Assembly (NCBI GenBank): GCA_964457475.1 | Contig: CAYWEK010000001.1 | Span: 1-52,224, forward strand | DNA: 52,224 bases | Direction of reading: 5' to 3' | From: Candidatus Woesearchaeota archaeon | GTDB lineage: Archaea; Nanobdellota; Nanobdellia; Pacearchaeales; GW2011-AR1 | In this document: positions 1 to 39,733 of the stretch, piece by piece | Numbering within the stretch: position 1 is the stretch's first letter | Layout: the number at the start of each line of letters is the position of its first letter | The notes under the pieces: model-generated | The model's input: only the letters and a program-made list of their open reading frames with translations | What the model was told of the DNA's origin: nothing | Databases searched by the model: none | Program-made: the position numbers and the translations under genes

Positions 1-1925
1 TAAACAACACAAATATAATCTATAATGTAACTTTAAGCTTAACAAATATTGGCGGGAGTAATGCCACGAATGTGAATATAACTGACTCTGATTCAACAAA
101 TTATAATATTGGGACTTTGATTGCCGGTCAAACAATAACTGAAAGTTATCTTGTGACTCTTAACAGAGGCGTTTATTTGACAATGCATTCTTTGAGCATT
201 GCAACTGCAAATGGAACTGATTCTATAAGTAATAATCTGATTCAAGTGAACTCAAGCCAGATTTCTGTCGTAATTCCGGCATTGAATAACCCTGCTTCTT
301 TCGTCTTAAGTAAAATAGCTAGTTTCGATAATGTGACGAACACAACAATCAGTTACAACGTAACATTAATACTTACAAATAATGGGGGCAGTAATGCAAC
401 GAATGTGAATATAACTGACTCTGATTCAGTTTCAAGCCCTTACATAATAGGAAGCTTAAATCAAAGTCAGGTAGTTACTGAGAGTTATATAGAAACATTC
501 AATAGGAATTCAACAACCTATTTCTCTCCTTTATCTGTAGCTCAAGTATTAGGAATTGATTCTTATAATAATGCTGTAATAGCTGCTAATTCAACTCAGA
601 GCAATGTTACGATTCCTATGACAAATACTGGACAGCAGTTAACTGTAATTAAGAATGATTACTATAACTCAGAGAACGTAACATCTGTTAATTATACTTT
701 AAGTGTTCAAGTCGTTAATTCTGGAGGTATTGACTTGAGTGGAATCGTCATTAATGATCAAGATCTTAATTTACTGACTACTCAATCTATAAACAGAAGC
801 CAAGCTTATGCTTATTCTGGATCGTTAATTATTAGCAAAGCAGCATCAAACTCAGAACACAACTTTTTCAAAACTACTGCAACTGCAAATTCTACGCAAT
901 ATGATTCTAATCAAATTGGAATTCTAATTCCAGGATATGGCGGACCAGCAGATACTTTAGTTTATTCGCCTGCTTCTGTAGATACTTTATCAAATTTTGA
1001 TTCTGTAATAGAAATAAAGAATCAAAACCCTGATGTTGGACAAAATTTCTTATTAGACTATTGGATAACGAGTAATGATGGTAATACTAATTATACCTCG
1101 AGTGAAGAAACTTTGTACATCGCTGCATCTTCATCCATTAATGTAACGGTAACTCTTACTTCTCCAGATTCTCCCGGGATTTATAAACTTATGGCCTTGG
1201 TAAATTATATTGGTGGGCCAGATATGGCTTTTGATAGCTTTGAAGTTAATAATCCTTCGCCTCCTGAAATCTCTTCTGGGAGCGCAAGTTTGAATGGAGG
1301 AGGTCCAGTCAATCTCACTCAGAAATATAATTGTAATATGTCATACATCTTATACGAGAATGAGTGTTGTTTGGATCAAAATAATGACAGTATTTGTGAC
1401 AAATATGAAACTCAAAAACTAAAAATACAAAATAAAAATCAAACAGAAAATTATAATAGCTCAGAACAAAACTCTTCTCAAAATAATATTTTTTATGAAT
1501 CAGTTAAGACCCTATTCTCTGATATTTCTATTATATATCAGTCATTTAAGGACAAGATAGATTATCAGATTTTGGTAAGTGTTATCTTAATACTCATAAT
1601 TTCCATTTTAATTATAGCTAATAGAAAGATAATACTTAATATCTTTAAAATCCATAGATTATTATGTATTTTCTTAAGCAAGAATAAAAAATATCCAATA
1701 AATAGCCTTAATGATTTAATAGGTAAGAAGATATATTCTGAAGATGGAAATTATGTCGGAAATGTCATTGATGTAACATTAGAAGAAAACAAGATTGATA
1801 GCCTTAAAGTGAAAATAGACAAGAATAATCCATTTGGAACAAGAGGGATAATTATTAAGTATAAACATGTTATTGGTGTTGGCGAAGTAGTGTTTATTGA
1901 TGAATCAATTTCTAAGCATATTTAA
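1..1925 (+). CDS. Surface protein (5' partial): tandem CARDB/DUF11-like repeats, Cys cluster, one TM helix, C-terminal PRC-barrel-like domain
   Basis: The reading frame is open from nt 3, and the upstream codons give NTNIIYNVTLSLTNIGGSNATNVNITDSDS, another copy of the internal repeat. There are at least 3 copies of a ~111-aa unit. Other elements are CNMSY..ECCLDQNNDSICD, a TM segment ILVSVILILIISILIIA, and a tail GKKIYSEDGNYVGNVIDVTLEENKIDSLKV typical of PRC barrels. Confidence 0.6.
   Translation, partial: NNTNIIYNVTLSLTNIGGSNATNVNITDSDSTNYNIGTLIAGQTITESYLVTLNRGVYLTMHSLSIATANGTDSISNNLIQVNSSQISVVIPALNNPASFVLSKIASFDNVTNTTISYNVTLILTNNGGSNATNVNITDSDSVSSPYIIGSLNQSQVVTESYIETFNRNSTTYFSPLSVAQVLGIDSYNNAVIAANSTQSNVTIPMTNTGQQLTVIKNDYYNSENVTSVNYTLSVQVVNSGGIDLSGIVINDQDLNLLTTQSINRSQAYAYSGSLIISKAASNSEHNFFKTTATANSTQYDSNQIGILIPGYGGPADTLVYSPASVDTLSNFDSVIEIKNQNPDVGQNFLLDYWITSNDGNTNYTSSEETLYIAASSSINVTVTLTSPDSPGIYKLMALVNYIGGPDMAFDSFEVNNPSPPEISSGSASLNGGGPVNLTQKYNCNMSYILYENECCLDQNNDSICDKYETQKLKIQNKNQTENYNSSEQNSSQNNIFYESVKTLFSDISIIYQSFKDKIDYQILVSVILILIISILIIANRKIILNIFKIHRLLCIFLSKNKKYPINSLNDLIGKKIYSEDGNYVGNVIDVTLEENKIDSLKVKIDKNNPFGTRGIIIKYKHVIGVGEVVFIDESISKHI
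57..428 (+). repeat. Intragenic tandem repeat, period 333 nt (111 aa), inside the surface protein gene
   Basis: The 39-nt block agtaatgc[c/a]acgaatgtgaatataactgactctgattca occurs at 57-95 and 390-428 with one mismatch. The flanking repeat sequence is much more diverged. A third, diverged unit follows ~333 nt later (SVNYTLSVQVVNSGGIDLSGIVINDQD). Confidence 0.8.
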
Positions 1926-25679: not shown

Positions 25680-26441
25680 ATGCCTACTAAAAAAATTTAT
25701 AAAGCATATTTTTCTAGAGGAATGATGGAAAGTGTTTTGAAGAAGATTTTTTCAGGAAAAAGCGATGAGTATGTCCACAATGAATTTACCAAATTCAGCA
25801 GAGGTAGTTTTGGTAACCGTTATCTTATTGATGCTAAAAAAAAGGCTGACAAATTTAGTATAAAAACCGGTGCGGAGTTTGCGAACTTTTTAGTCCGTAG
25901 TTGCCTTGAAAAAATAAATGGAAGTGTTGAAGTATCTGGAGTAATCGTCTCAACTTTTGACATAAAGAAGGATATGGGTGGTTCTGTTTTTAATCCTGAT
26001 GAAGATGTTAAGCAATTTATGGGCATAAAACAACTAAAAGTGAACGGAAACATACCTACAAAGAAGATTATTGAAATAATGGATAAATATCCTAAAGCAT
26101 TTTTCGCCCTGACATTTTCTGGAAAGGATTTTGAACTTAAAATAAAAGCTAAAGCACCAAAAAGCGCTAAGCCATCGACTAAAGGTGCTGATGAAATAAA
26201 GGCCGACTTCTGCTCATTAAAAACCTCAGATAAATCAATTGTAAATGACCTTTTCTTTGATATTCCCGAATTTAAAGAAATAAAAATAAATCATACGATA
26301 CAAATAGATAATATAACTTTACCTAAAGGAGAAAAAGACCCTATCAAAATAAGAGAAAATGCGACAAGAGAAGGCAAGATAATAAGAAAAGTTATTGCTG
26401 ATGGGAATATTTCTAGGAAAGAAGCAGAGTTTAAAGCTTAG
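25680..26441 (+). CDS. Hypothetical protein (253 aa)
   Basis: Long ORF, K-rich and soluble. No family recognised. Confidence 0.5.
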   Translation: MPTKKIYKAYFSRGMMESVLKKIFSGKSDEYVHNEFTKFSRGSFGNRYLIDAKKKADKFSIKTGAEFANFLVRSCLEKINGSVEVSGVIVSTFDIKKDMGGSVFNPDEDVKQFMGIKQLKVNGNIPTKKIIEIMDKYPKAFFALTFSGKDFELKIKAKAPKSAKPSTKGADEIKADFCSLKTSDKSIVNDLFFDIPEFKEIKINHTIQIDNITLPKGEKDPIKIRENATREGKIIRKVIADGNISRKEAEFKA

Positions 26442-26995
26442 AACTCCAAACCTTTTCTCGCCAAAATACCTGAATCATATGGATGTTTTACTTTCTTTAT
26501 TTCAGTTACAAGATCTGCAAGAGCAAATATTTCTTCAATAGGTTTATGGCTTCCCGTTAGAATAAGCTCTTTATTTTTTGGTTTATTCCTTATCAAATTA
26601 ACAACTTGTTCTTTTTCTAGCAGTCCGAGTTGTATAGTATAAAGTATTTCGTCTGCAATTATTATGTCATATTTATTATCACTTAAAGAAGAAGCAACAT
26701 GGTTTAGGGCTTCATTAACTTTTTCTTTGTGCACTGATTCATTTTTTCCTTTTACATACCAATCTCCAACTCCAAACCTTTTGTATGAGAAATTCTGAAA
26801 TCTTTCTAGTGCCTTTATTTCTCCAGGTATTTGTTCGTCCAGTGTCTCCGCACCATTTTTCATGAATTGTACAAGATGAACATTATATCCGTTTCCGCAC
26901 GCCCTCAACGCCGTACCAAGGGCAGAAGTAGTCTTCCCCTTACCGTTTCCCCAGAAAACCTGTACAAAACCTAGCTGAGATTTATCAGGATCCAT
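26438..26995 (-). CDS. cobO: Cob(I)yrinic acid a,c-diamide adenosyltransferase (CobO/BtuR type)
   Basis: VQVFWGNGKGKTTSALGTALRACGNGYNVHLVQFMK, IIIADEILY and HPYDSGILARKGLEF are collinear with BtuR/CobO. Confidence 0.8.
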   Translation of the reverse strand: MDPDKSQLGFVQVFWGNGKGKTTSALGTALRACGNGYNVHLVQFMKNGAETLDEQIPGEIKALERFQNFSYKRFGVGDWYVKGKNESVHKEKVNEALNHVASSLSDNKYDIIIADEILYTIQLGLLEKEQVVNLIRNKPKNKELILTGSHKPIEEIFALADLVTEIKKVKHPYDSGILARKGLEF

Positions 26996-27057
26996 CTAGA
27001 CTTTCAGATCTTCAAATATATAAATATAATTAATTTTCAATACTATTCTTCTTGTAA

Positions 27058-27102
27058 GTATTTATACGTATAAATACTCTTAGATATGTTTAAATACGTA
27101 TT
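27058..27102. promoter_or_regulatory. Promoter and operator candidate: 20-bp perfect palindrome, a second ATACGTAT palindrome, and a TATA box
   Basis: GTATTTATACGTATAAATAC (27058-27077) is a perfect palindrome. AATACGTATT (27093-27102) is a second one. The ATACGTAT cores lie 30 bp apart. The TATA tttaaata (27089-27096) is centred 26 nt upstream of the RHH gene ATG. Confidence 0.45.
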
Positions 27103-27118
27103 GATATAAATAGATATA

Positions 27119-27295
27119 ATGAAAAAGGGGCAGAAGGATAAGCTGACAGTCCTGATTGATAGAAATATAAAGGAAAAATACCGCGTATTTTGTGACTTGC
27201 GCGGGCTAATTCTCGGCAAGCAAATAGAATTGTTTATGGAAAGAGAGCTGGAAAAGATAGAAAAAGGAGATAGAAGTGGTGAACGGAAAAAATAA
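27119..27295 (+). CDS. Small ribbon-helix-helix (CopG/ParG-like) DNA-binding protein, 58 aa (below the ORF-track cutoff)
   Basis: My own translation is MKKGQKDKLTVLIDRNIKEKYRVFCDLRGLILGKQIELFMERELEKIEKGDRSGERKK. It has a beta-strand followed by two helices in the RHH pattern. Its 3' end overlaps the next gene by 20 nt. Confidence 0.5.
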   Translation: MKKGQKDKLTVLIDRNIKEKYRVFCDLRGLILGKQIELFMERELEKIEKGDRSGERKK

Positions 27296-28040
27296 AAGAG
27301 GGCAGATAGCGATATGGATAATAATCGCGATTGTGATCGTAGCAGTAATTTTTATGCTTTTCCTACTAAACAAAAGCCCGACAACGATTACACAAGGTCA
27401 ATATGACTTCCAAAGCTCAATAGAAAAATGTGTCAGAGATGCAACAAGCAATGCCATCGATGTAATGATTCCTCAGGGGGGTTTTCTGCAGCCAGAGAAT
27501 TACAAGCTATACAATAATATCAATGTTACATTTTTGTGTCAAAATACTGGATATTTCAAACCATGTATCAATCAACATCCTTTGTTAATTAATGAGGAAA
27601 TCAATGAAATTGAGAATTATACGACACCAATAATAAATAATTGCTTTTCAAGCGCTCAAAGTGAACTTGAAAGTAGAAATTATGGCGTTTCCATAAGCCC
27701 GATTTCACTAAATGTTTCTTTCGGTTCTGGTAGAGTCTACACCCTTATCGTCACAAATGTAACGATAAGTAAAAATGGGCAAACGCAAACATATGATAAC
27801 TTCAATGTAGAATTGAATAGCCCGATATATGATTTAAGTAAGGTTGCGATGGATATAACTAATAACGAGGCCAAGTACTGCTATTTTGAATATGTAGGAT
27901 ATATGCTTCTTTATCCAAGGTGGCAGATATCTAAATTTACTTTCTCAGATTCGACAAAAATATATACTATAGAAGATCTACAATCAAAGAAGGAGATGAA
28001 TATAGCCGTAAGAGGATGCGCTATACCTCCAGGAATTTAA
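27276..28040 (+). CDS. Pilin-like secreted protein A1 (class III signal peptide)
   Basis: GTG start preceded by AAGGAGA. The N-terminus is MVNGKNKRGQIAIWIIIAIVIVAVIFMLFLL (basic residues, then G, Q, then a hydrophobic helix). It is a paralog of 31943-32710. Confidence 0.6.
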   Translation: MVNGKNKRGQIAIWIIIAIVIVAVIFMLFLLNKSPTTITQGQYDFQSSIEKCVRDATSNAIDVMIPQGGFLQPENYKLYNNINVTFLCQNTGYFKPCINQHPLLINEEINEIENYTTPIINNCFSSAQSELESRNYGVSISPISLNVSFGSGRVYTLIVTNVTISKNGQTQTYDNFNVELNSPIYDLSKVAMDITNNEAKYCYFEYVGYMLLYPRWQISKFTFSDSTKIYTIEDLQSKKEMNIAVRGCAIPPGI

Positions 28041-28041
28041 A

Positions 28042-31000
28042 ATGAGGGAAGAAAAAACCGAAAAAAATATTTATTTTTCAGTAATTCTAGAGATGTCTCT
28101 GATGATAGGGATGATTTTTGCAATTTCTTATATGATGGGGCAATATTCTCCTAACGGAACTATGATTATCCAATATAATTCATATGCTATTAATCCTGAT
28201 GCTATATTTTTGAAAGCTCTTGGAATATTTGACAAAATTGTGTTTGGCAACACTGGTTTTGCTTCCGCATTATCACAAAGTGACTTGACGAGTGGGGCAT
28301 ATACTTGCCCTATCGATAAGAATGGTTCAATCTGCCAGCAATATACTGCAAGTGACTGCGCAGCGAACTGCGCTGTTGACTGTCTTCCTACAACAGCAGA
28401 CCAAACTTCTCAATGTAAAATAGGAACATGTTATGATCCTGTGCAGGGAACGTGCCAAATAGGGGCGCCTCAAGTTGCGTGCCAACAGGACGGTGGGCAA
28501 TGGTTCAATGATCCTAATGGAAATGTGGCGCAATGTAAACCTGGATGTTGTCTCCTTGGTAGTAATGCATATTTTGAGACTTCACAACAATGTTCGCATG
28601 ATTCTAATGTAACTGGTCTAACGGAGGATTTTAGACCCGAAGTCAGCACTGAACTCGCATGCCTTGCATTATCACAAACACAAGTACAAGGAGCTTGCGT
28701 AATTGCATCTAATACGCAAAATTCTTGTAAGTTCACAACACAGGTTAATTGCGAACAAGATTTAGGTGGAAAATTTTATCCTAACTTATTATGCTCCAAT
28801 AACGCGTTAAACACAGGTTGTAAATCACAGGCAACAATTGGATGTGTACAGGGTAAAGACGAAGTTTATTGGTTTGATTCATGTGGAAATCAGGAGAATA
28901 TTTATGATGCAAATAAAGTCAAAAGTTATAACAATGGAATGATTCTTTCAAAAAATTCCGCCTGTTCGCTTGCCAGCGGAAATAATTTGCTTGCTAATCA
29001 AGCCACGTGTGGAAATTGCAATTTTGTTCTTGGAAGCATATGTGGAGCCAGTACAAATACACAAAAACTTTCTGAGCCGAATGCAAATGTAGTCTGCAAA
29101 GACTTATCATGTGTTGATGCAGATGGACAAAAAAGAGTAAATGGAGAGTCCTGGTGTGCATATCAAGGTTCAACAGGAACTGCCGCAGGAGCAGGAGGAT
29201 TTTTGAGATCTACAGACACTGTTGGAAGTAGAGATTTCAGGGAAACGTGCATAAACGGACAAATAGAAACAGACCAGTGTGCTGATTATAGAAATGAAAT
29301 CTGTGTTGAGTCGCAAACAAGCACTCCCAATACTCCCACTGGTAAAATATCTTCTGCCGCATGTAGAATAAATCTGGGTTATGAATGTTATGATTACAAT
29401 AAAAATAATGACATGAACAGTTGTAAGCAAAACCCTGATTGTTTCGTGAAAAGTGTTCAAGTATCAGGAAGTTTTAATTTTAATATTTGCGCTCCCAAAT
29501 ATGTTCCTGGTTTTGACTTAACTCAAAGAGGTACTGGAGCGGCTGCAATCTGTTCAATAGCTAATCAACAATGCCAAGTCGTTTATGTCAAAGAACTTTT
29601 TGGAGGATGGCAATGCAAAGCAAATTGTGAATGCCAAACTTCATCATTTGCGGAACAAATGAATGATTTATGTATCTCATTAGGAGATTGCGGAACAAAA
29701 GTAAATTATATTGGAGATTTAACGAAAAATGAACATGTTTTCAAGAGCACTAGTAAGGATAGTCTTGGAAATGAAGTTGGAGCAAGCAGTGGAGATTTAA
29801 GCAATAATTATGTTAATGGGTTGGTGAAATATGCTGATGAGAATTTGTTCAAGAATCAGTATATACAAGCATCAGATATATCTTCGCTGTATGGAAATAT
29901 CGGAATTCCTGGATGGCTTGGACAGGCTCAGTCTCCTACAGATCCAACCGCCGGCGTTACCGGAGAACTTTCCATGATATCTGGGATGGTTGGAATTTTA
30001 GTTCTTGCAGCGGCGCATACGAGTATAGGATTAGCATCACTTGGAGCTCTTAGTAGCGCTGTGGCCCAACCAACTGAAATAGGTCAGGTAACTGGCACCG
30101 GAGCTTATGGGCTAACTCCCGCGGCATCTGCAGCGTTCGGCGCAATAGGCGGCGCCACTTTAGGATTAGCTTTAGTTTCTTTCTTGATTGACTTCACAGG
30201 AATAGGAAAGGGCTTACCTCCAGCTGTGACTTATTCTTTAATGGCGGTGGGAGCGACTGCTGGAGGAATAATAGGGGCAAATATAGCTGCTGGCGGAGGA
30301 TTAGGAAGCTTTAGCGCTGCCTGGACAAGCTTGGCATTCTTATCTGCCCTTTCTGTTGTACTGATTGCTATTGTGATTATAGCAATAATAGTCTTATCAT
30401 TACTTGGAATTGGTGATACAAAAACAGTCTATTACTCTTTTGAATGTGATCCATGGCAAGCTCCTAATGGTGGAGCAAAATGCGATCAGTGTGGAAAAGA
30501 TGGATTCCCATGCTCGCAATATTCCTGCCAAAGTCTTGGCCAAAACTGCCAACTAATCAATGAAGGTAGCGCAAATCCTGCATGTGTTAATATTAATCCA
30601 AATGATACTAGCTCACCAGTAATAACTCCTGCAACAAATCTCTTGCCTGATGGATATACTGCACAGCAAACACAGAATGGAGTAAAAATCACAACTTCCA
30701 ATGGTGGATGTCTGACTGAAAATTACCAACAAATACCTTTTGGAATCAATCTTAATAAATATGGACAGTGCAAAATAGACACGGAGCATACTGCATCATT
30801 TGATGATATGCAACAACCACTTGATTCAGGACTTTATCTCGAAAACCATAGTCTTCCATTAGTTATACCTAGTCTTGAAAGCCTTGGAGTTCAAAGCTTT
30901 AATCCAAATGCGACTGCTGATTATAATATTTATTTGAGATGCCAGGACAAATCAGGAAATACGAATACAAATGAGTATGATATAAACTTCTGCATAGCTC

Positions 31001-31920
31001 CTGGTAATGATACAACTCCTGCAGCAATAACATATTCTGATCCTTCAACAAAAACTCTTGCTTTTAATACAACAAGTATTAACGCATCTGTTTACACAAG
31101 CGAACCGGCAAATTGCAACTGGGACACTAAAGATACAGACTATAATTTGATGGCAAATAACTTTAGTTGCGCAACTGATTTTGCACAGAGAACATTATAT
31201 GGATGGAAATGTAATGCTCTTCTTCCTTTCTCTGGAAATTCAACTACGTATTATGTTAGATGTCTTGACCAACCTTGGTTGACTGGGGATAATGCGACAA
31301 AGAGAAATGCAAACACCCAGAGTTATCCTCTAACTTTCACACGTAGTTCAAAAGCATTAAACATAGACTCTATAAATGTTGATGGCAAAAATTTAAGTTT
31401 TGGAGTTGCCCCAGCAAGTGTTGAAGTTGATGTCAAAACATCTGGTGGATTAGATGGCACTGCTGAATGTGCCTATGTTTGGGGAAATTCAACCATTGAC
31501 TTTTTCAGCACATTGAGCACAAGTCACAGCCAAGTATTTCAGACTTTATATCCTGGGGAAATAACTCTTCCAATAATATGCACCGATTCTGTGGGCAACG
31601 TTGCGCAGAAAACAGCACATTTCAATATCCTTCTAGATACAACTCCGCCGATAATAACAAGAATCTATTCTCAATCTGGACAACTCAATATAATAACCGA
31701 TGAACAATCAACATGCTATTATAGTAATGATGATAGTCAAAAATGTCTTTTCGATATAAGCAATGCGAGCATCTTTAACGGGATTTATACAAATGATCAT
31801 AGTATAAACTTTGACACAAGTCAAGTGTATTATGTAAAATGTAAAGATAAAATTGGAAATTATCCTGGAACATGCAGCACAATAGTAAGAGAGGGGAATT
31901 ATGATTCGCAACAATTATAA
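28042..31920 (+). CDS. Giant cysteine-rich surface/membrane protein B1C1 (1292 aa), no family recognised
   Basis: N-terminal signal anchor, a Cys-dense ectodomain (nt ~28290-29725), a Gly/Ala-rich hydrophobic block (~29960-30420), a Cys knot (CDPWQAPNGGAKCDQCGKDGFPCSQYSCQSLGQNCQ) and four repeats delimited by TTPP-like linkers. The N-terminal half is paralogous to 32712-34256 and the C-terminal half to 35025-37217. Confidence 0.7.
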   Translation: MREEKTEKNIYFSVILEMSLMIGMIFAISYMMGQYSPNGTMIIQYNSYAINPDAIFLKALGIFDKIVFGNTGFASALSQSDLTSGAYTCPIDKNGSICQQYTASDCAANCAVDCLPTTADQTSQCKIGTCYDPVQGTCQIGAPQVACQQDGGQWFNDPNGNVAQCKPGCCLLGSNAYFETSQQCSHDSNVTGLTEDFRPEVSTELACLALSQTQVQGACVIASNTQNSCKFTTQVNCEQDLGGKFYPNLLCSNNALNTGCKSQATIGCVQGKDEVYWFDSCGNQENIYDANKVKSYNNGMILSKNSACSLASGNNLLANQATCGNCNFVLGSICGASTNTQKLSEPNANVVCKDLSCVDADGQKRVNGESWCAYQGSTGTAAGAGGFLRSTDTVGSRDFRETCINGQIETDQCADYRNEICVESQTSTPNTPTGKISSAACRINLGYECYDYNKNNDMNSCKQNPDCFVKSVQVSGSFNFNICAPKYVPGFDLTQRGTGAAAICSIANQQCQVVYVKELFGGWQCKANCECQTSSFAEQMNDLCISLGDCGTKVNYIGDLTKNEHVFKSTSKDSLGNEVGASSGDLSNNYVNGLVKYADENLFKNQYIQASDISSLYGNIGIPGWLGQAQSPTDPTAGVTGELSMISGMVGILVLAAAHTSIGLASLGALSSAVAQPTEIGQVTGTGAYGLTPAASAAFGAIGGATLGLALVSFLIDFTGIGKGLPPAVTYSLMAVGATAGGIIGANIAAGGGLGSFSAAWTSLAFLSALSVVLIAIVIIAIIVLSLLGIGDTKTVYYSFECDPWQAPNGGAKCDQCGKDGFPCSQYSCQSLGQNCQLINEGSANPACVNINPNDTSSPVITPATNLLPDGYTAQQTQNGVKITTSNGGCLTENYQQIPFGINLNKYGQCKIDTEHTASFDDMQQPLDSGLYLENHSLPLVIPSLESLGVQSFNPNATADYNIYLRCQDKSGNTNTNEYDINFCIAPGNDTTPAAITYSDPSTKTLAFNTTSINASVYTSEPANCNWDTKDTDYNLMANNFSCATDFAQRTLYGWKCNALLPFSGNSTTYYVRCLDQPWLTGDNATKRNANTQSYPLTFTRSSKALNIDSINVDGKNLSFGVAPASVEVDVKTSGGLDGTAECAYVWGNSTIDFFSTLSTSHSQVFQTLYPGEITLPIICTDSVGNVAQKTAHFNILLDTTPPIITRIYSQSGQLNIITDEQSTCYYSNDDSQKCLFDISNASIFNGIYTNDHSINFDTSQVYYVKCKDKIGNYPGTCSTIVREGNYDSQQL

Positions 31921-31942
31921 ATACGAGTCTTCTCGGATATTC

Positions 31943-32710
31943 ATGCGAGGCAAAAAGGGGCAAATAGCGATATTTGTTATAATAGCAATAGTGATTGTTG
32001 CTATAATCCTGCTCATTGTTTTTTATCCAAGACTTCCTTCTATCACCCAAGGAGCTGAGCTTTCACCTGTTTCTTTTCTTGCAAGTTGCATTCAACCAGA
32101 TCTGAAAACTGATGTTGCTTTGCTTGGTGGCACTGGGGGTTATGCAACACCTGATGCATATCTTGAATATCAAGGAGCTAAAATACAATATTTGTGTTAT
32201 ACTGCTGAAGACTATAAGACCTGTGTTGTGCAACAGCCACTTATAAAAGAAAATTTTGAAAGACAATTAAATACTTTGATAAAAAGTAAAGTTAGCGGAT
32301 GCGTACAAAGTTTGAATCAGGAATATACTAATCAAGGATATCAAGTCACTATAGGAAATGTTGATAGTCAGACAAGCATAAATCCTGGAGACATTCTAAT
32401 ATCAATAACTGCACCTATGACTGCTACAAAGTCTGGAGTGACAAAGAGTTTCACCGGATTCAATGTTGAAGTACCAAGTAAGATGTATGACTTGTTGATG
32501 ATAGCAACAAGCGTAATCGATTATGAATCAACACTTGGAGACTCTGAAACAACACTTTATGTTCAATACTATCCTAATTTGGTGATGCAAAAAATAAGAC
32601 TTGATGATGGCAGTAAAGTTTATAGCCTGACTGATGTTACAACTAATGAAAGTTTTAGATTTGCCTCGAGAAGCCTAGTATGGCCTCCAGGATATGGAAC
32701 AACTACGTAA
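31943..32710 (+). CDS. Pilin-like secreted protein A2 (class III signal peptide)
   Basis: MRGKKGQIAIFVIIAIVIVAIILLIVFY. The shared Cys pattern (C..LC....YK.C..Q.PL) and the C-terminal WPPGY/IPPGI match A1. The tracked start at 31901 would overlap the upstream gene; I prefer Met15. Confidence 0.6.
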   Translation: MRGKKGQIAIFVIIAIVIVAIILLIVFYPRLPSITQGAELSPVSFLASCIQPDLKTDVALLGGTGGYATPDAYLEYQGAKIQYLCYTAEDYKTCVVQQPLIKENFERQLNTLIKSKVSGCVQSLNQEYTNQGYQVTIGNVDSQTSINPGDILISITAPMTATKSGVTKSFTGFNVEVPSKMYDLLMIATSVIDYESTLGDSETTLYVQYYPNLVMQKIRLDDGSKVYSLTDVTTNESFRFASRSLVWPPGYGTTT

Positions 32711-32711
32711 A

Positions 32712-34256
32712 ATGAAAGTAAAAATTAAAAATCTTGGACTAAGAATTACTTTATTAATCAGTTTAGTACTCTTTGTTTCTGTTTTTAGTACTTATTTTAC
32801 TTTGGCAGATAGTCTGAACCAGACAGTTTGTTGTGAAAAAACAACTTCTAATTTATATTGTCAAAATGTTCCAGCAAGTCAGTGCGCTTCTGGATCAAGG
32901 CAAGTGCCAACTTCATGTTCATCAACTTCATTCTGCAATCCTGGAACATGTTACAATTCTGTGCAAGGAACATGTCTTCAAAATACACCACAAATAACCT
33001 GCAATGCAAATGGTGGAATATGGTCTGCACAAAGTCCACCTCAGTGTAATCTTGGATGTTGCCTTCTTGGAGACCAAGCAGCTTATGTGACATTAACAAG
33101 ATGTAAATATCTTTCATCTTCCCTTGGCTTGCAAACAAATTATGATCCTAGCATAACAAGTGAAACTGCTTGTATACAGCAAGTCCAAGGTCAGGATCAA
33201 GGCGCATGTGTTTATACTTCATCCGACTTGCAAACAACATGCAAGTTTACAACTAGAGCACAGTGTAATCTCGGATTTAATGATACTAACACTGCACAAA
33301 CACCACAATTCTATAAGGATACCTTGTGCACAGCTCCAGTTCTTGGCACTAATTGCGCTCCTACTACAAAGACTACTTGCGTTCCAGGTAAAGATGGAGT
33401 TTATTTCGTTGATACATGCGGTAACCCTGCAAATATTTATGATGCATCAAAAATAAATGACCAAGAGTATTGGACTAATGTTAAAACTATCACACAATCA
33501 TGCAGCCCTAACTCAGGAAATTCGAACTCTCAGACATGTGGAAACTGTAATTATCTTCAGGGAAGTATCTGTAGACAATCATCATCAAGTACTGCTAAGC
33601 CAAGCTATGGAAATTATATTTGTCAGGACTTAAATTGTCAACAAACTTCTGATGGTAAGTCTTACAAACAGGGAGAATCATGGTGCGTTTATACTGATTC
33701 GGGATCTCAAAACACTGGCAATAATGCTGTGGGAAGTGAGTTCTACAAACATATATGTGAAAATGGACAAGAAATTCTTGAGCAATGTTCTGGATTTAGG
33801 CAAGAGGTTTGTCTTCAGGGAAGTATACAAACATCTTCAGGATTGTTTTCGCAGGCAGCATGTAGAGTAAATAGATGGCAAGATTGCACTGCACAAACAA
33901 ATCAACAGGATTGCCAGAATACTGATAAAAGAGATTGTCTTTGGGAAAATGGAGTAGGACTTAATGGTTCAACTGGGGGAGCATGTATCCCACAATACAC
34001 TCCAGGTTTGCAATTCTGGAGCGGTAGTGATGCTCAAAATATATGTGCGCAAGGAAACGCGCAATGTATAGTTACATTTGAAAAAGGTTTGTTTGGTGGA
34101 GAGACATGTAAGTCAAATTGTGACTGTTTAACATCTGACTGGCAGAAACAGAGAATACAAGTGTGCGAGGCACTTGGTGATTGTGGACCAAAGGTAAACT
34201 GGATAGGCCAGCAAGGATATGGTTCTGGTTATAATATAACAACAAGTAGCGCCTAA
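32712..34256 (+). CDS. Cysteine-rich secreted protein B2 (paralog of the N-terminal half of the 1292-aa protein)
   Basis: Signal peptide MKVKIKNLGLRITLLISLVLFVSVFSTYFTLA. About 43 Cys by hand count. Collinear anchors with B1 include GTCYNSVQGTC, GCCLLGDQAAYVT, CGNCNYLQGSIC, GESWCVY and LGDCGPKVNWIG. The tracked start is 32694. Confidence 0.7.
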   Translation: MKVKIKNLGLRITLLISLVLFVSVFSTYFTLADSLNQTVCCEKTTSNLYCQNVPASQCASGSRQVPTSCSSTSFCNPGTCYNSVQGTCLQNTPQITCNANGGIWSAQSPPQCNLGCCLLGDQAAYVTLTRCKYLSSSLGLQTNYDPSITSETACIQQVQGQDQGACVYTSSDLQTTCKFTTRAQCNLGFNDTNTAQTPQFYKDTLCTAPVLGTNCAPTTKTTCVPGKDGVYFVDTCGNPANIYDASKINDQEYWTNVKTITQSCSPNSGNSNSQTCGNCNYLQGSICRQSSSSTAKPSYGNYICQDLNCQQTSDGKSYKQGESWCVYTDSGSQNTGNNAVGSEFYKHICENGQEILEQCSGFRQEVCLQGSIQTSSGLFSQAACRVNRWQDCTAQTNQQDCQNTDKRDCLWENGVGLNGSTGGACIPQYTPGLQFWSGSDAQNICAQGNAQCIVTFEKGLFGGETCKSNCDCLTSDWQKQRIQVCEALGDCGPKVNWIGQQGYGSGYNITTSSA

Positions 34257-34317
34257 TTATTTATGTCACTTATTAGTAACAGCAAAGTTTAAATATCTAT
34301 AATTTTCTTAATCTTTT

Positions 34318-34971
34318 ATGAAAATAGGTAAACATTTAGGAATTGCAGGTTTAGTTACTGCCGGAACTATTTTGAGTGGGTGCGATGCTACTATGCGAGA
34401 AGATGGTGCAAATGTCTTAGACAATCTAGCAAACAGAGTAGTTACTGGAGGAGCAGTATATGATGCTAATTCACAAATTCAGGCAAACCAAGGCAATTAC
34501 AGAGCCGCTGCAGCGTGGGGCGCACTTGCAGAAACTGCACAAAATGACTACAATAGGCAAACAGCTATAGATGCTGCTGAGGCTGGAAGAAGCGATATAA
34601 CTATCAATAATTATCCTTCCCAGAAGAATAGGCAGATAGATTTAATTCTTTGTTATTGGAAAGACATGAACAATAATGGTAAAATTGATTTAAATGAAAT
34701 TTCTATAAGAAAAACTTTTTATGCTCCTGCAAATGTAACTATATTGGATACAAGTACGGTTACTATTCCATACAACGTTGATATTAAATTATTCAAAGAT
34801 GCAGACGTATTAAGTATAAAAGAAATGCGTTTGAATGGACTTACTCATGACGGTTTCTCGGAAATCTCTGCGCTGACATTTTATGGTCTGACAGATGGTT
34901 ATTACTCTGCTGAGTGCTCTGTTAATGGCGAAATAATCAAAGAATTGACATTTAATGTTGTAAATGAATGA
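34318..34971 (+). CDS. Putative lipoprotein (217 aa)
   Basis: Lipobox-like N-terminus MKIGKHLGIAGLVTAGTILSGC. It has its own TATA (gtttaaatat) centred 26 nt upstream of the ATG. Confidence 0.6.
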   Translation: MKIGKHLGIAGLVTAGTILSGCDATMREDGANVLDNLANRVVTGGAVYDANSQIQANQGNYRAAAAWGALAETAQNDYNRQTAIDAAEAGRSDITINNYPSQKNRQIDLILCYWKDMNNNGKIDLNEISIRKTFYAPANVTILDTSTVTIPYNVDIKLFKDADVLSIKEMRLNGLTHDGFSEISALTFYGLTDGYYSAECSVNGEIIKELTFNVVNE

Positions 34972-35024
34972 TGGAATTATTAACCTTCAAGAATATTTAT
35001 AAACATAAAAATTCTTGATAAGAT

Positions 35025-37217
35025 ATGAGGAAAGGGCTGAAAAAGAGGTTCGTTTATTTTGGAGTTATTGCGCAAATCTTTCTTATGATTTCATTCAGTT
35101 TTACTCTTTCTTTTATCATAAATAATAATTTTGTTAATGCTGCAATTGATAATACTAATTTGGCTCTTGATAATCCTAGTGGAACAGGCATATCTACTAC
35201 GGCTGGGCTTGGTGGCGTTTCCGACTTCAACGGTTTTAACGGTCCGTATAATGGACTAGCTAATCAAATATTGCCTCCTCCAGCAGCTATAAATCCAGTC
35301 TCTGGATCCGCACCTATAATAGTATCACATGCAAATGGATATACTCCTTATCAATTACCTGGAGGTTTAGGCACTATTAGTAATCCTCTTCTTGGGCATC
35401 TTGCTCAAGGACTTGTTTGGGCCGGACTTGTTGCCGGAGCTATTCAATTATTAGGTGCTTTTGGTCTAGGAAAAGGAACAACTAATGCATTGACTATTTC
35501 TGCAGTTGGAGGCATTCTTGCTGGACAAGCCGTAACTGGAGCCTTTCAAAGCGGCTATCTAAACTCATTAGTGGCAGGTAATGGAAAATTTTTTGGATTG
35601 TTTAAGACTGCTGGACAGGCAGGCTTTGCAGTAGGAGCAGTAGTCGCAATAGCACTTTTCATCGCAACTTATTCATCCCAAACTAAAAAAATGGTGAACT
35701 TTCAATGCCTTCCTTTCCAACCAGCTCTTGGCGGCTCGCAATGCCAGAAGTGCAATAATAATCCTTTCGAGCCATGTACTGAATATAGATGCAGAGCACT
35801 AGGACAGGCATGTCAGCTACTAAATGCTGGAAGCAATGATCAACAGTGTGCGTGGGTAAGTCCAAATGATGTAGCTGCACCAACTATAACTCCATGGAAT
35901 GACGCGCTTTCCCCTACTGGATTAAAGTATACTCCTGATACTGCTGTAAATCCTCCGGCAATTGGAACGAAAATAGTTACATCTGGTGGAGGATGTCTTC
36001 CTGCTTTCACACCATTACAATTCGGTATTACTACGAATGAACCTGCACAGTGCAAAATAGATTATAATCATACTGCAAACTATAGTGATATGCAATATTA
36101 TTTTGGAGGAAGCAATTATTTTGATTACAATCATACTGAAATATTATCATTGCCCGGTCCAAATACTGGAAATAATTCTATTGCTCCAGCATTACAAAAT
36201 AATGGTCAATTCTCTCTTTATGTGAGGTGTATGGATGCAAATGGAAATACAAACGTTGCTGAATATGCATTCGCATTCTGTGTTGATCAAGGACCGGACA
36301 CAACTCCTCCAGTAATAGAAGGTTCTTCAATACCATCTGGAAGTTATGTTGGATATGGACAAAGCAATGTGCCTATAGAATTATACACGAATGAGCCGGC
36401 TACTTGTAACTGGGACACTCAAGATAAAGATTATGATTCTATGGCTAATAACATGACTTGTACAACACAAAGTTACCAAGTAAATGCAAATCTACAATAT
36501 ACATGTTTTGGAAATCTTACTGGAATTCAAAATAATAAAGATAATACTTTCTACTTTAGATGCAAGGATCAGCCTGACAAGCCTGATAATCAGAGAAATG
36601 TTGATGTACAAAGTACAACTATTGTATTGAAGGGGAGCCAACCTTTAGTGATTCTTTCTGCTGCACCAAATGGAACTATAACTGGAAGTACGGATACAAT
36701 ACCTGTTAATCTACAGCTTGAAACAAGTGCTGGAGCAACTGGGGATGGTAATTCAACATGTTCATTCTCTTCAACAGGACAAAATGACAGCTATGTCGCG
36801 ATGTTCCAGACAGATAGCTTTACACACAGTCAGACACTTAACCTAGCTACAGGAGATTATACATATTATTTCAGATGCATAGATTCTGGAGGAAACGCTG
36901 CGGAAACCAACACGACTTTCAGTGTGTCTGTTGATACTCAGCCTCCAATAGTAACAAGAGTATACAAGCAGGATGCATTGAAGATAGTCACAAATGAGAA
37001 CGCCCAATGTAGCTATTCTCTTACTTCCTGTAACTTTAATATAGCTGATGGGATAAAGATGATATATTCGAATCCAGACATACAGAATAATCTATTTGCT
37101 GAATGGAAATCAAGCCAGACATATTATATAAGATGCATGGACTTGTATGGAAATGAACCTGCTCCAAATCAATGTAGCATAATTGTAAGTCCTGTTACAA
37201 TAAGCGGAGCTCAATAG
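35025..37217 (+). CDS. Membrane/surface protein C2 (paralog of the C-terminal half of the 1292-aa protein)
   Basis: Signal anchor, a Gly/Ala-rich hydrophobic block (~35390-35680), a Cys knot (CLPFQPALGGSQCQKCNNNPFEPCTEYRCRALGQACQ) and four repeats (NEPATCNWDTQDKDYDSMANN, YYFRCIDSGGN, DTQPPIVTRVY, YYIRCMDLYGN). It has its own TATA 25 nt upstream. Confidence 0.7.
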   Translation: MRKGLKKRFVYFGVIAQIFLMISFSFTLSFIINNNFVNAAIDNTNLALDNPSGTGISTTAGLGGVSDFNGFNGPYNGLANQILPPPAAINPVSGSAPIIVSHANGYTPYQLPGGLGTISNPLLGHLAQGLVWAGLVAGAIQLLGAFGLGKGTTNALTISAVGGILAGQAVTGAFQSGYLNSLVAGNGKFFGLFKTAGQAGFAVGAVVAIALFIATYSSQTKKMVNFQCLPFQPALGGSQCQKCNNNPFEPCTEYRCRALGQACQLLNAGSNDQQCAWVSPNDVAAPTITPWNDALSPTGLKYTPDTAVNPPAIGTKIVTSGGGCLPAFTPLQFGITTNEPAQCKIDYNHTANYSDMQYYFGGSNYFDYNHTEILSLPGPNTGNNSIAPALQNNGQFSLYVRCMDANGNTNVAEYAFAFCVDQGPDTTPPVIEGSSIPSGSYVGYGQSNVPIELYTNEPATCNWDTQDKDYDSMANNMTCTTQSYQVNANLQYTCFGNLTGIQNNKDNTFYFRCKDQPDKPDNQRNVDVQSTTIVLKGSQPLVILSAAPNGTITGSTDTIPVNLQLETSAGATGDGNSTCSFSSTGQNDSYVAMFQTDSFTHSQTLNLATGDYTYYFRCIDSGGNAAETNTTFSVSVDTQPPIVTRVYKQDALKIVTNENAQCSYSLTSCNFNIADGIKMIYSNPDIQNNLFAEWKSSQTYYIRCMDLYGNEPAPNQCSIIVSPVTISGAQ

Positions 37218-37868: not shown

Positions 37869-38684
37869 TTACCTTCCTCTTAATCTGTTAAATAGCGATT
37901 GCCAAAATCCTACCTTCGCTCCGCTTCCATTCAAAGAACCAACTATTCCTCCGCCAGAGATATTTCCTCTATTGTCTGAAGGCATATTCTGAGGATTACC
38001 AACCACTCTAGGTTGGACGATTCCACTTGACTTAGAAGCTATTGAGACGCTATATGTGCCAGCAAAATTTCCAGAGTTCAGATTCAAATTTCCTGTCCAG
38101 ATAGATACTGCTGAATAATCAGTAGAAGAGAGACTTAAAGTCCCCAACGAATTTGAATTACTTTTATCGTTCGTTGCATAAACATTAAAGACTAAACTTG
38201 CGTTTGTTGAAGCACCCATATCTTCAACTATTTTAAACGCACCACGATTGGCTCCGACATCTATATTTATTCTTCCATCAGTTCTTTTTATGAAACTAGT
38301 GTTGACTGCATTCGCCAATGCGCCTCTTATTGCCTGATTCCTGTCCCTTGAGTCATTCTGGTATTGGCTCCTTATACTATTTATATCGCTACTAGATATA
38401 TTTGTTAAAGTTTGTGTTACCCACAATGCGTTGAAAAGATAACCTGTACTATTAGTACTAGAAGTTATCCATCCTTGCCCATATGTGATTACGCTTGAAC
38501 TTACCATTCTATAACCAGATGATTGGTTTAAGTCTGAGAGAGATGAACTAATGTCATCGCTAACACTTGCTGGAGTTATGGTTGAAAAATCTGTGCCATT
38601 ATCATCTGCAACAGCAAATGAAGTGGCAAATACTCCTGCGACTAGCAAAAAGGTCATCGCAAACATAGTTATTTTACTTGTCAT
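37869..38684 (-). CDS. Secreted S/N-rich protein (271 aa), unknown function
   Basis: Signal peptide MTSKITMFAMTFLLVAGVFATSFAVA, with an SD (aaaggaggaaaaa) upstream. Confidence 0.55.
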   Translation of the reverse strand: MTSKITMFAMTFLLVAGVFATSFAVADDNGTDFSTITPASVSDDISSSLSDLNQSSGYRMVSSSVITYGQGWITSSTNSTGYLFNALWVTQTLTNISSSDINSIRSQYQNDSRDRNQAIRGALANAVNTSFIKRTDGRINIDVGANRGAFKIVEDMGASTNASLVFNVYATNDKSNSNSLGTLSLSSTDYSAVSIWTGNLNLNSGNFAGTYSVSIASKSSGIVQPRVVGNPQNMPSDNRGNISGGGIVGSLNGSGAKVGFWQSLFNRLRGR

Positions 38685-38787: not shown

Positions 38788-39552
38788 CTATTTTCCTACC
38801 AACTCTACCAGCTTATTTTTTCCTTCTCCAAACCTTCTTACCAAACCTTTTTTCTCCAATTCTTGCAAATGCCTTGAGAATGAAGCCTTAGGTATATTAG
38901 ACAGTTTCCTCAAATAGGACATTTTTATTTTACCAGTTTTTTTCAGATTTGAGAGAATAATCTTTTCTCTTTCATTTAATACTTTCTCTATTATTTCAAG
39001 ATTTGAGATTTTATTATTTTTATTATTAATATTTAGCTTTCTTTTATTCTTTTTACTCATTCTTACATTGAAAAAAACTATCAGAGATATTAAAGCGGCA
39101 ATTGCTATTATAAGAAAGACAATTATTGTTATTGGACTACTATCTTGACTTTGTGAGGTAAAAGAGTAAGTTATATTTAAATAATCTTTCGAAGAAACTA
39201 TTACATCTCTATCAGAAACTTCTATATCTCCGTTGGAGTTGCTTGTTATTTTTATACTGTTAGGAAGAATTAAGTTTAATGTTGAATATTTTAATGAATA
39301 TTGGAAAGTCCAATTATCTCCTTGTTTTGATGTTAAAGTATTAGTTATTCCAGATATTTTATAATTATTAACTTCCACACCATCCGGTAATGAAGAATTT
39401 GTGATATTATCTGTAGTTGTTCCAATAAAGACTGCTTCTCCAGTTTGGTCAAGATATATATTAATTGTTGAATAAGCTGATGCAATATTAGGCAAGACCA
39501 ATACTAGCATAACTCCTAATAACAGTGATAAAATTATCTTTTTAGCCCGCAT
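38788..39552 (-). CDS. Membrane-anchored transcriptional regulator: signal peptide, extracytoplasmic domain, TM helix and C-terminal winged HTH
   Basis: Met17 start (MRAKKIILSLLLGVMLVLVLPNIASA), TM helix ITIIVFLIIAIAALISLIVFF, and C-terminal wHTH MSYLRKLSNIPKASFSRHLQELEKKGLVRRFGEGKNKLVEL. The longer tracked N-terminus overlaps the upstream small gene. Confidence 0.6.
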   Translation of the reverse strand: MRAKKIILSLLLGVMLVLVLPNIASAYSTINIYLDQTGEAVFIGTTTDNITNSSLPDGVEVNNYKISGITNTLTSKQGDNWTFQYSLKYSTLNLILPNSIKITSNSNGDIEVSDRDVIVSSKDYLNITYSFTSQSQDSSPITIIVFLIIAIAALISLIVFFNVRMSKKNKRKLNINNKNNKISNLEIIEKVLNEREKIILSNLKKTGKIKMSYLRKLSNIPKASFSRHLQELEKKGLVRRFGEGKNKLVELVGK

Positions 39553-39565
39553 TTTTTGAATTGTC

Positions 39566-39733
39566 CTACAAATCTCTTGCCTGCAAAGTGCGGCGGCCAT
39601 TTAGTTTGGTCCTATTTGCCGCTACATCAAGCAATTCTTGAACTTTTTTGTTTAATGCATCTGGAACATCACCTGCAACAGACAAATCAGGAACAGCTGC
39701 TTTTATCTTACTTTTTATTATTAAATCAACCAT
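39566..39733 (-). CDS. DUF1931-like histone-fold small protein, 55 aa (below the ORF-track cutoff)
   Basis: My own translation is MVDLIIKSKIKAAVPDLSVAGDVPDALNKKVQELLDVAANRTKLNGRRTLQARDL. The ...A.NGR[KR]T[LV]..RD[LI] end matches the histone-fold alpha2-L2-alpha3 region. The ATG overlaps the lysS stop (ATGGTTGA). Confidence 0.55.
   Translation of the reverse strand: MVDLIIKSKIKAAVPDLSVAGDVPDALNKKVQELLDVAANRTKLNGRRTLQARDL

Follow-up and report, generated by a model that had tools for sequence, protein, structure and literature searches.

The window analysed here is a stretch of 52,224 nt from contig CAYWEK010000001.1 (assembly GCA_964457475.1). About 10 kb of its plus strand (27058-37217) holds a module in which a set of three predicted surface proteins, here called A, B and C, occurs twice. 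There is in our view an even chance that the two paralogous sets form a core complex of the cell envelope, anchored in the membrane and locked by disulfides. We prefer a structural role because the module is universal, single-copy and never rearranged, lies in housekeeping surroundings and has strongly conserved ectodomains. The original prediction, made from the letters of this DNA, had proposed a cell-envelope adhesion or host-contact apparatus of a small episymbiotic archaeon. The adhesion idea is compatible with a core coat, because the coat of an episymbiont also meets its host, and on our analysis host contact by the module appears plausible.

In the arrangement we propose, set 1 (A1 and B1C1) and set 2 (A2, B2 and C2) would be the matched halves of a spike or surface-coat unit. 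C would be the membrane part, with an N-terminal helix carrying a buried Gln or Glu and three Gly/Ala-rich helices, and outside the cell it would bear a membrane-proximal knot of seven cysteines and an outward arm of four immunoglobulin (Ig)-like domains. B, a globular ectodomain of about 530 residues with about 43 cysteines, would be held in the first outside loop of C in set 1 and secreted alone via the Sec pathway in set 2, and the disulfide-locked base made of B and the knot would sit near the membrane. A would be exported by a class III (prepilin-type) signal and retained through its N-terminal helix, while one to three variable lipoproteins would be made together with the other proteins as accessory parts. 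The small DNA-binding protein whose gene overlaps that of A1 would control all of these as a single operon, from a palindromic operator.

The six-frame list of open reading frames (ORFs) gives seven plus-strand genes in the order ribbon-helix-helix (RHH)-like protein, A1, B1C1, A2, B2, lipoprotein and C2 (Table 1), and the order, coordinates and spacings of the original prediction match this list exactly. RHH and A1 overlap by 20 nt, the A1 stop and the B1C1 start are 1 nt apart, and with starts at 31943 and 32712, A2 follows B1C1 after 22 nt and B2 follows A2 after 1 nt. The NCBI gene call for B1C1 (1269 aa) begins 23 codons downstream of the start used here. It cuts most of a conserved helix motif at the N-terminus, and the longer version, starting 1 nt past the A1 stop, is therefore better supported. 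The three proposed pairs of paralogues were recovered in pairwise BLASTP comparisons, with 28% identity over 250 aa for A1 and A2 (E 1e-27), 36% over 523 aa for B1 and B2 (E 1e-84) and 35% over 603 aa for C1 and C2 (E 8e-82).

B1C1 was searched against 5.8 billion proteins, and more than 300 full-length relatives (1200-1450 aa, 39-64% identical) were recovered, all of them unnamed or 'hypothetical', without a Pfam domain, and from metagenome-assembled genomes of Pacearchaeota or 'Nanoarchaeota'. The corresponding search with A1 returned 400 relatives. When one genome per GTDB species was scanned, 314 genomes with a relative were found, and the best 80 of these 314 are labelled Pacearchaeota, Woesearchaeota or Nanoarchaeota. 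The genomes from which the homologues come place the organism as a DPANN archaeon of the Pacearchaeota type.

To follow the gene order, 86 loci (designated L001-L086) were fetched, and their ORFs were called and labelled by BLASTP against the proteins of the window. Wherever the contig was long enough, the rule was A1-BC-A2-B2-(x)-C2 on a single strand. The A gene adjacent to BC was always A1-like, and the one adjacent to B2, which it always preceded, was A2-like. The exceptions were an extra, third A1-BC set in L059 and L079, a fusion of B2 and C2 into a protein of 1368 aa with a 250-aa extra linker region in L060, an inverted A2-B2 in L085 and an inverted A1 in L055. The three parts thus co-occur in related genomes, and the original argument that two collinear copies point to selection on a working unit is strengthened by an order kept in essentially every sufficiently long locus. 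As both the A1-like/A2-like pairing and the gene order are fixed across the loci, the duplication of the set must predate the radiation of these species. Close relatives also keep the neighbours of the module, namely an AI-2E transporter, a hypothetical protein of 220-250 aa, a CobA-like gene and Hjc, while in distant relatives the neighbours are PCNA and primase, still housekeeping genes; a mobile element is excluded on these grounds. Judged from gene order and neighbourhood, the duplication is ancient, vertically inherited and not mobile. Median identity to the orthologues was 53.5% for B2, 42% for B1, 41-44% for A and 37-41% for C, making B2 the most conserved part of the module.

The N-terminal helix of the C proteins carries the motif [QE]IFLLI..SFAFSY, the family consensus of which is identical in BC and C2 and different in B2. 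Residues 1-32 of B1C1 and of C2 were also aligned with each other as a second high-scoring segment pair in the BLASTP comparison (E 2e-4), and in the fused B2C2 protein of L060 the C-type helix again stands before the B part. Because B1C1, C2 and the L060 fusion share this helix, B is best described as inserted into a C-type protein, at its first loop. The earlier description of B1C1 as a unit of B and C was thus correct in that both parts are present, but the protein is not a simple fusion, as the C-type N-terminal helix precedes B. The Gly/Ala-rich block consists, in this order, of a GGALAGAAIG.AVTS helix, a TG.G.GL turn, an AAGA.AGA.IG helix and a strongly hydrophobic last helix. In the model of B1C1 the helices span residues 660-685, 693-715 and 728-753, with predicted local distance difference test (pLDDT) values of 72-91. 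The first hydrophobic segment of the B1C1 block is poorly conserved (pLDDT about 35) and is missing in C2 and in the fused protein of L060.

The knot that follows contains seven invariant cysteines (802, 814, 817, 824, 829, 836 and 848 in B1C1), including one CxxC, and is modelled with pLDDT values of 91-97. When the four repeats were taken from an alignment of 54 sequences and compared by hhalign, they proved mutually homologous (E 2e-10 to 3e-6 in five of the six pairs). Their cysteines are spaced by 17-20 or 37 residues. Two N-X-S/T sequons in C are kept in 47 and 46 of the 54 homologues. The build claimed for C in the original prediction, i.e. a Gly/Ala-rich hydrophobic block, a Cys knot and four repeats, is thus conserved in all its elements. 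That prediction had also recognised no characterised family in the module, which stands for A, B, the hydrophobic block and the knot. It does not stand for the C repeats: residues 584-638 of C2 match the Ig-like family Big_13 (PF19077) with 29.4 bits, above the cut-off of 27 (E 1.2e-6). The corresponding match in B1C1 is weaker (E 0.098). A Big_13-class match at E<=0.01 was reached by 9 of 37 members of the BC family, and DUF4625, Y_Y_Y and Big_3_3 matches were obtained in a minority.

In B, 41 cysteines are kept in at least 90% of 54 homologues, and the motifs of the domain are YWFDSCGN.ENIYD, NGESWC, DTPGSRHFR and SLGDCG..VN. B2 has a Sec-type signal peptide with the family consensus MKKK...FVSA/..TVCCEKT. 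The structure was modelled for residues 35-860 of B1C1, comprising B, the hydrophobic block and the knot; the Ig-like repeats were left out because they would swamp the fold search. The AlphaFold model had a mean pLDDT of 82.6, with values above 90 throughout B and the knot. Its best Foldseek match in PDB had an E of 2.7 and that in BFVD an E of 0.24, so no known fold was found, and the B profile gave no match among PDB sequences. Profile comparison detected no internal repeats in B, the two halves of which are unrelated to each other. No likeness to a fusogen or viral envelope glycoprotein (fusexin or class I-III) was found by Foldseek against PDB and BFVD or with PHROGs. Resemblances to NINJ1 (Foldseek, E 5) and AopB (PDB profile search, E 2.6) were not significant and were dropped. 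The GDCG motif had been considered as protease-like and was also dropped, since the local model is a helix followed by a strand and no protease fold was matched.

Proteins of the A family start with the consensus xxNK[KR]GQ[VI][TA]I[WF][VI]IIAI.IVA, in which Q at position +1 is nearly invariant. A1 carries RGQIAI and A2 KGQIAI, and both have the basic segment, the [KRDE][GA] pair and the uncharged hydrophobic helix of a class III signal. The FlaFind-type motif [KR][GA]Q, with 15 uncharged residues after it, occurs in 66 of 83 A1 and 67 of 79 A2 orthologues, compared with 1 of 85 BC, 3 of 72 B2 and 2 of 44 C2 proteins. The number of cysteines is even, with six in 82 of 83 A1 orthologues and four in 75 of 79 A2 orthologues. 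The AlphaFold model of A, based on an alignment of 85 sequences (pLDDT 90.2), consists of a helix (aa 7-31), a low-confidence disordered linker (35-40) and an alpha/beta head of three helix-plus-sheet units. Among 350,000 PDB chains, Foldseek found nothing below E 8e-3 and no TM-score above 0.16, and no pilin was among the top 50 neighbours. The A profile had no match in PDB sequences, and a Pfam scan of the 85 family members gave no family, Class_IIIsignal included. Neither a pilus ATPase of the FlaI/PilB type nor a FlaJ/TadC platform protein or a prepilin peptidase was found among the window ORFs scanned or in the recurrent flanks within 10 kb in the 86 loci. The description of A as pilin-like was therefore right as far as the signal motif goes, but it does not extend to the modelled head or to the genes around it: class III cleavage is predicted from the motif, and 'pilin-like' applies to the signal peptide only. 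Searching 1.84 billion cluster representatives with the A profile gave 541 matches at E<=1e-30, 1799 at 1e-10 and 5664 at 1e-3, so there is a broader A superfamily.

The composition of the proteins supports the surface location that was originally proposed. The A, B and C ectodomains contain 13-17% charged residues and 36-48% S/T/N/Q/G (13-15% and 42% for C), similar to a secreted protein encoded nearby, whereas the seven cytoplasmic proteins of the window contain 24-33% and 22-31%, respectively. Together with the signal peptides, the conserved cysteines and the two conserved sequons in C, the low charge argues for an extracytoplasmic module. The cysteine counts carry further information. B has an odd number of cysteines in 61 of 69 fused proteins and in 70 of 72 free B2 proteins (mostly 43), and C has an odd number in 66 of 69 fused proteins and in all 38 C2 proteins (21, i.e. 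7 + 14). The unpaired cysteine of C must lie in the knot, because every repeat has an even count. On the simplest reading the odd counts imply one disulfide between B and the knot, which places B and C in the same compartment. From this parity, B and C are probably joined by one disulfide, within the chain in set 1 and between two chains in set 2.

The 58-aa protein at the start of the module has weak matches to RepB-RCR_reg (E 0.007; 16.7 bits where the cut-off is 21) and RepA (E 0.017), and orthologues of this window type were found in L008, L020 and L021. In the 86 loci the ORF that overlaps the A1 start always encodes a DNA-binding-type protein of 41-90 aa, and these belong to at least four unrelated kinds: RHH-like as in the window, a second RHH-like type (SATID..YRNKSH), a winged helix (VVTSSEIAK..SWNTA) and AbrB-like. 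The regulator has been replaced among unrelated folds, yet its position and the overlap with A1 are kept (e.g. L001 9054-9203, L005 9049-9234 and L023 980-1144). The palindrome ahead of the RHH gene has two fully complementary arms, and arms of 11 nt were reached in one of 2000 shuffles of the 123-nt intergenic region. A second core, ATACGTAT, is found at about 27091-27101, and the words TACGTATAAATAC and TTTAAATAC recur in L008, L020 and L021 ahead of the RHH gene of this type. The palindrome overlaps a TATA-like sequence and is likely the operator of the RHH protein, the binding being predicted from these repeated words and arms.

Between B2 and C2, one to three ORFs with a [LS][SAT]GC lipobox are present in 29 of the 39 loci that have B2 and C2 on one strand, and these lipoproteins are mostly unrelated in sequence. 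The window protein in this slot carries a lipobox of the form [LVI][ASTG][GA]C, from which lipid modification is predicted. It belongs to no Pfam family, and a Pfam scan of ten slot lipoproteins for glycine-zipper lipoprotein families gave no match.

Scans of the seven proteins, of 85 A members and of 37 BC members with Pfam, NCBIfam, PHROGs and PADLOC gave only the Ig-like matches in C, and phmmer and profile searches against PDB sequences gave none. The profile and structure comparisons proposed with the original prediction thus placed A and B in no family and next to no known fold. PF07760 (DUF1616), the family of the membrane-associated Ig-like 'S-layer-like' proteins of COG4743, had no match at E<=1 in B1C1, C2 or the 37 members, and neighbours of the arCOG01314, MoxR ATPase and vWA types were not found in the window or the recurrent flanks. 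We found no description of the module, or of a layout with paralogous triads, in the literature.

Several known systems share features with the module. With the archaeal class III signal proteins, i.e. the substrates of PibD, EppA and FlaK that FlaFind is built for, A shares the basic segment, [KR][GA]/Q and the uncharged helix; it differs from them and from pilins in the fold of its head, in the disordered linker, in having no machinery nearby and in occurring once per B/C set. Large Cys-rich proteins, S-layer-like or adhesins, are often encoded in archaeal pilus loci, and the pilin genes are in many cases distant from the ATPase (PMC4858521). These type IV pilus loci, and the predicted arCOG01314 secretion system (Makarova et al. 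2015, 2016), likewise combine pilin-type proteins with large secreted or membrane-associated Ig-like proteins that have two to four membrane helices and many conserved cysteines (PMC5898192, PMC4858521). The module, however, matches none of the models of those families and comes without the ATPase/TadC or MoxR/vWA partners, and neither the B domain nor paralogous triads are described there. Like the complex proposed here, two-component S-layers (e.g. SlaA/SlaB of Sulfolobales) and Ig-domain S-layers are membrane-anchored extracellular arrays of beta-sandwich or Ig-like domains, encoded by adjacent genes and universal in their lineage (PMC11329633). There is no likeness in sequence or fold to these S-layers, the anchor of the module would be an N-terminal helix plus a Gly/Ala-rich three-helix block and not a single C-terminal helix, and the module has seven genes including a regulator. 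The C repeats match the relatives of Big_13 (DUF4625, Y_Y_Y and Big_3_3) weakly, and their D..GN and DTTPP boundary motifs are typical of these domains. Compared with Big_13 adhesins, they have their own cysteine pattern (4, 4, 2, 4), and the rest of the protein is unrelated. With the attachment organelle and intercellular bridges seen by electron cryo-tomography (cryo-ET) in cultured DPANN archaea (Nanobdellota YN1 and Nanobdella aerobiophila), the likeness is purely contextual, one of lifestyle and cell compartment. In summary, the class III signal, Ig-like repeats, lipobox and RHH are familiar elements. A and B are outside every family and solved fold compared, and we found no earlier description of the layout of paralogous triads with a lipoprotein slot and interchangeable regulators.

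The module could alternatively be an apparatus for host contact or transfer, in which the Gly/Ala helices of C1 and C2 would form a heteromeric portal and the Ig arms, B heads and lipoproteins would engage the host when switched on by the regulator. It would then supply a protein component of the attachment structures that cryo-ET has revealed in other DPANN archaea, the constituent proteins of which are not known (PMC11420986). We consider this possible but on the unlikely side. The conserved packing motifs of small residues (Gly/Ala) in the helices and the dedicated regulator with its putative operator speak for it. Host specificity could be carried by the variable lipoprotein slot and by the lengths of loops and linkers. 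Some 1% of a very small genome is given over to the operon, which is never lost, and Pacearchaeota are reported to be unusually firmly attached to their hosts (PMC7906910). On the other hand, the ectodomains are strongly conserved across species that must differ in host, the operon includes no ATPase, energising component or cytoplasmic domain, and none of the resemblances to pore-forming or membrane-rupturing proteins was significant. The conservation is above what would be expected for a host-specific adhesin, and a core envelope role fits it at least as well. A different possibility, which we regard as improbable, is a fibre or pseudopilus related to type IV pili, with A1 and A2 as pilins that a prepilin peptidase would cut and an ATPase/TadC machine encoded elsewhere would polymerise, and B and C as accessory S-layer-like proteins or adhesins. 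Such a fibre would account for the motif with its uncharged helix, which is specific to A, and for the nearly invariant Q+1; it would also agree with the common distance between pilin genes and the ATPase, with the Cys-rich S-layer-like proteins of pilus loci and with the pili that have been seen on ultrasmall groundwater cells (PMC7906910). It is weakened by the lack of ATPase, TadC/FlaJ and prepilin peptidase genes in the 52-kb window and within 10 kb in the 86 loci, by the disordered linker between helix and head, by a head without pilin or archaellin neighbour in PDB and by the strict pairing of one A with one B/C set, where tandem pilin arrays would be expected. Archaeal pilins are also described as fast-evolving (PMC4858521), against a median identity of 41-44% for A.

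Two further explanations concern the topology and the origin of the module. C could be receptor-like, with B outside and the knot and the Ig-like repeats in the cytoplasm, where the cysteines would bind metal, and it would then signal or act as a scaffold across the membrane. The even number of helices in C2, the Lys/Arg-rich stretches at the N-terminus and after the last helix (GIGK.KK) and the one CxxC in the knot would suit this, the helix count and the basic stretches by the positive-inside rule. It seems very improbable, as the C ectodomain resembles B and the secreted neighbour in composition and not the cytoplasmic proteins of the window, two sequons are conserved in C, the spacing of the repeat cysteines fits Ig-type disulfides and not zinc knuckles, the odd cysteine counts of B and C are complementary, and Big_13 is an extracellular domain class. 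An integrated mobile element or the remnant of a provirus, with envelope or fusion proteins, is hardly credible. It could be suspected from the small RHH gene at the 5' end, the overlapping genes and a G+C content of 0.385-0.40 across the module (27000-37200), compared with 0.33-0.35 in the flanks. The synteny effectively refutes it, as in many genomes the module has an unchanged position, flanked by the same housekeeping genes, and its order is fixed in more than 80 species. In addition, no PHROGs, PADLOC or viral-structure match was obtained, and no integrase or tRNA-linked boundary was found among the ORFs examined. The rise in G+C is plausibly explained sufficiently by the Gly/Ala/Cys/Thr-rich composition of the proteins, and a foreign origin is not required.

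A disulfide-locked core envelope complex also has to be weighed against several observations that do not favour it. No S-layer model was found for the proteins in Pfam or NCBIfam, and B and C gave no PDB sequence, profile or fold match. A dedicated and repeatedly swapped regulator would be unusual for a constitutive coat protein. The disulfide between B and C is deduced from cysteine parity only, and no disulfide partners could be mapped by correlated loss, the cysteines being almost never lost. Finally, in hydropathy counts made across orthologues and for the L060 fusion, C2 has an even number of predicted membrane helices, three besides the N-terminal one. The last helix is followed by a Lys-rich stretch, and a naive topology puts the Ig arm of C2 inside the cell. 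This count conflicts with the composition, the sequons and the cysteine parity, and we rate the latter three higher.

Table 1. Features of the module and their positions in the window
Feature	Position	Strand	Description
Palindrome, putative operator of RHH protein	27057-27078		22 bp, perfect, 11+11 nt arms AGTATTTATAC and GTATAAATACT; promoter region
RHH-like putative DNA-binding protein, 58 aa	27119-27295	+	presumed operon regulator; 3' end overlaps A1
A1, 254 aa	27276-28040	+	GTG start; class III (prepilin-type) motif NKRG/QIAI, N-terminal helix, 6-Cys alpha/beta ectodomain
B1C1, 1292 aa	28042-31920	+	C-type membrane protein; B ectodomain inserted in first outside loop
B1C1 N-terminal membrane helix, aa 8-33	28063-28140	+	from hydropathy; motif [QE]IFLLI..SFAFSY
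B1 ectodomain, aa ~85-615	28294-29886	+	~43 Cys; mixed beta-hairpin/helix structure
B1C1 Gly/Ala-rich hydrophobic block, aa 636-787	29947-30402	+	weak first segment, then three conserved helices
B1C1 7-Cys knot, aa 795-856	30424-30609	+	directly after last membrane helix
B1C1 Ig-like repeats R1-R4, aa 857-1285	30610-31896	+	4, 4, 2 and 4 conserved Cys; two N-X-S/T sequons
A2, 255 aa from MRGKKGQIAIF start	31943-32710	+	ORF opens at 31901; A1 paralogue; class III-type motif; 4 Cys
B2, 514 aa	32712-34256	+	ORF opens at 32694; free-standing B ectodomain; Sec-type signal peptide; 43 Cys
Lipobox protein, 217 aa	34318-34971	+	..GTILSG/C, Cys22; slot of variable lipoproteins
C2, 730 aa	35025-37217	+	helix aa 7-34, low-complexity loop 35-121, Gly/Ala block 122-220, knot and four Ig-like repeats 228-730

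Outside the module, the window is made up of housekeeping genes, as had been stated originally and was borne out by the scans of the window ORFs. The archaeal genes in the flanks include those for PheRS alpha and beta, SerRS, an AspRS-type synthetase, ThyA, thymidylate kinase and TruB, and further a Na+/H+ exchanger, an AI-2E transporter, a CobA-like protein and Hjc. Two genes are conserved as immediate neighbours of the module: a 253-aa protein without Pfam family (25680-26441, plus strand) in 35 loci, and a P-loop protein resembling CobA/CobO-type corrinoid adenosyltransferases (26438-26995, minus strand) in 29 loci. This is odd given the minimal metabolism of these organisms. On the other side of the module lies a minus-strand pair (38788-39600 and 37869-38684). 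The first protein starts with a signal or ectodomain, has one membrane helix and ends in a DUF7343-like winged helix of the MarR/TrmB type; it may be a membrane-tethered regulator, and a DUF7343 protein is near the module in L006 as well. The second is a secreted Ser/Asn-rich protein of 271 aa without family. At the start of the window, a 617-aa protein (72-1925, plus strand) has a C-terminal PRC-barrel domain as its sole recognisable part.

Much of archaeal diversity belongs to the DPANN archaea, which live attached to other cells and whose envelope and contact proteins are not known. The lineage-specific families of Pacearchaeota are unannotated and mostly membrane-bound or extracellular (Castelle et al., PMC8204110), and the operon is probably part of these. 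A minimal genome spends about 1% of its length on it, and it has not been lost across hundreds of species, with its order essentially kept. It is unusual that a whole multi-part surface module has been duplicated and kept as a matched pair, here in a major uncultured archaeal group that is not yet open to manipulation. The module is a highly conserved, concrete candidate for the envelope or contact machinery of this group. With its two confidently modelled domains that lack a structural relative, it is a prime subject for work on Pacearchaeota by structural biology, metaproteomics and cryo-ET, and it offers features that can be tested, i.e. the B-C disulfide, the prepilin-type processing of A and the RHH operator.

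A bolder idea, for which we see a small chance, is that the operon is the core of a DPANN host-contact machine, with a heteromeric glycine-zipper portal of C1 and C2 in the symbiont membrane, disulfide-locked B heads and Ig arms, pilin-type A subunits and the swappable lipoproteins as host-specific adaptors and its own regulator as a switch. Makarova et al. described the DPANN family cls.004306 (NEQ255) as a 'secreted protein next to S-layer-like proteins' (PMC6393860), and this family, as an unconfirmed candidate, might correspond to A. If the operon is such a machine, the A superfamily, with its 5664 representatives at E<=1e-3, would mark related machines throughout the DPANN archaea, possibly including the NEQ255 family.

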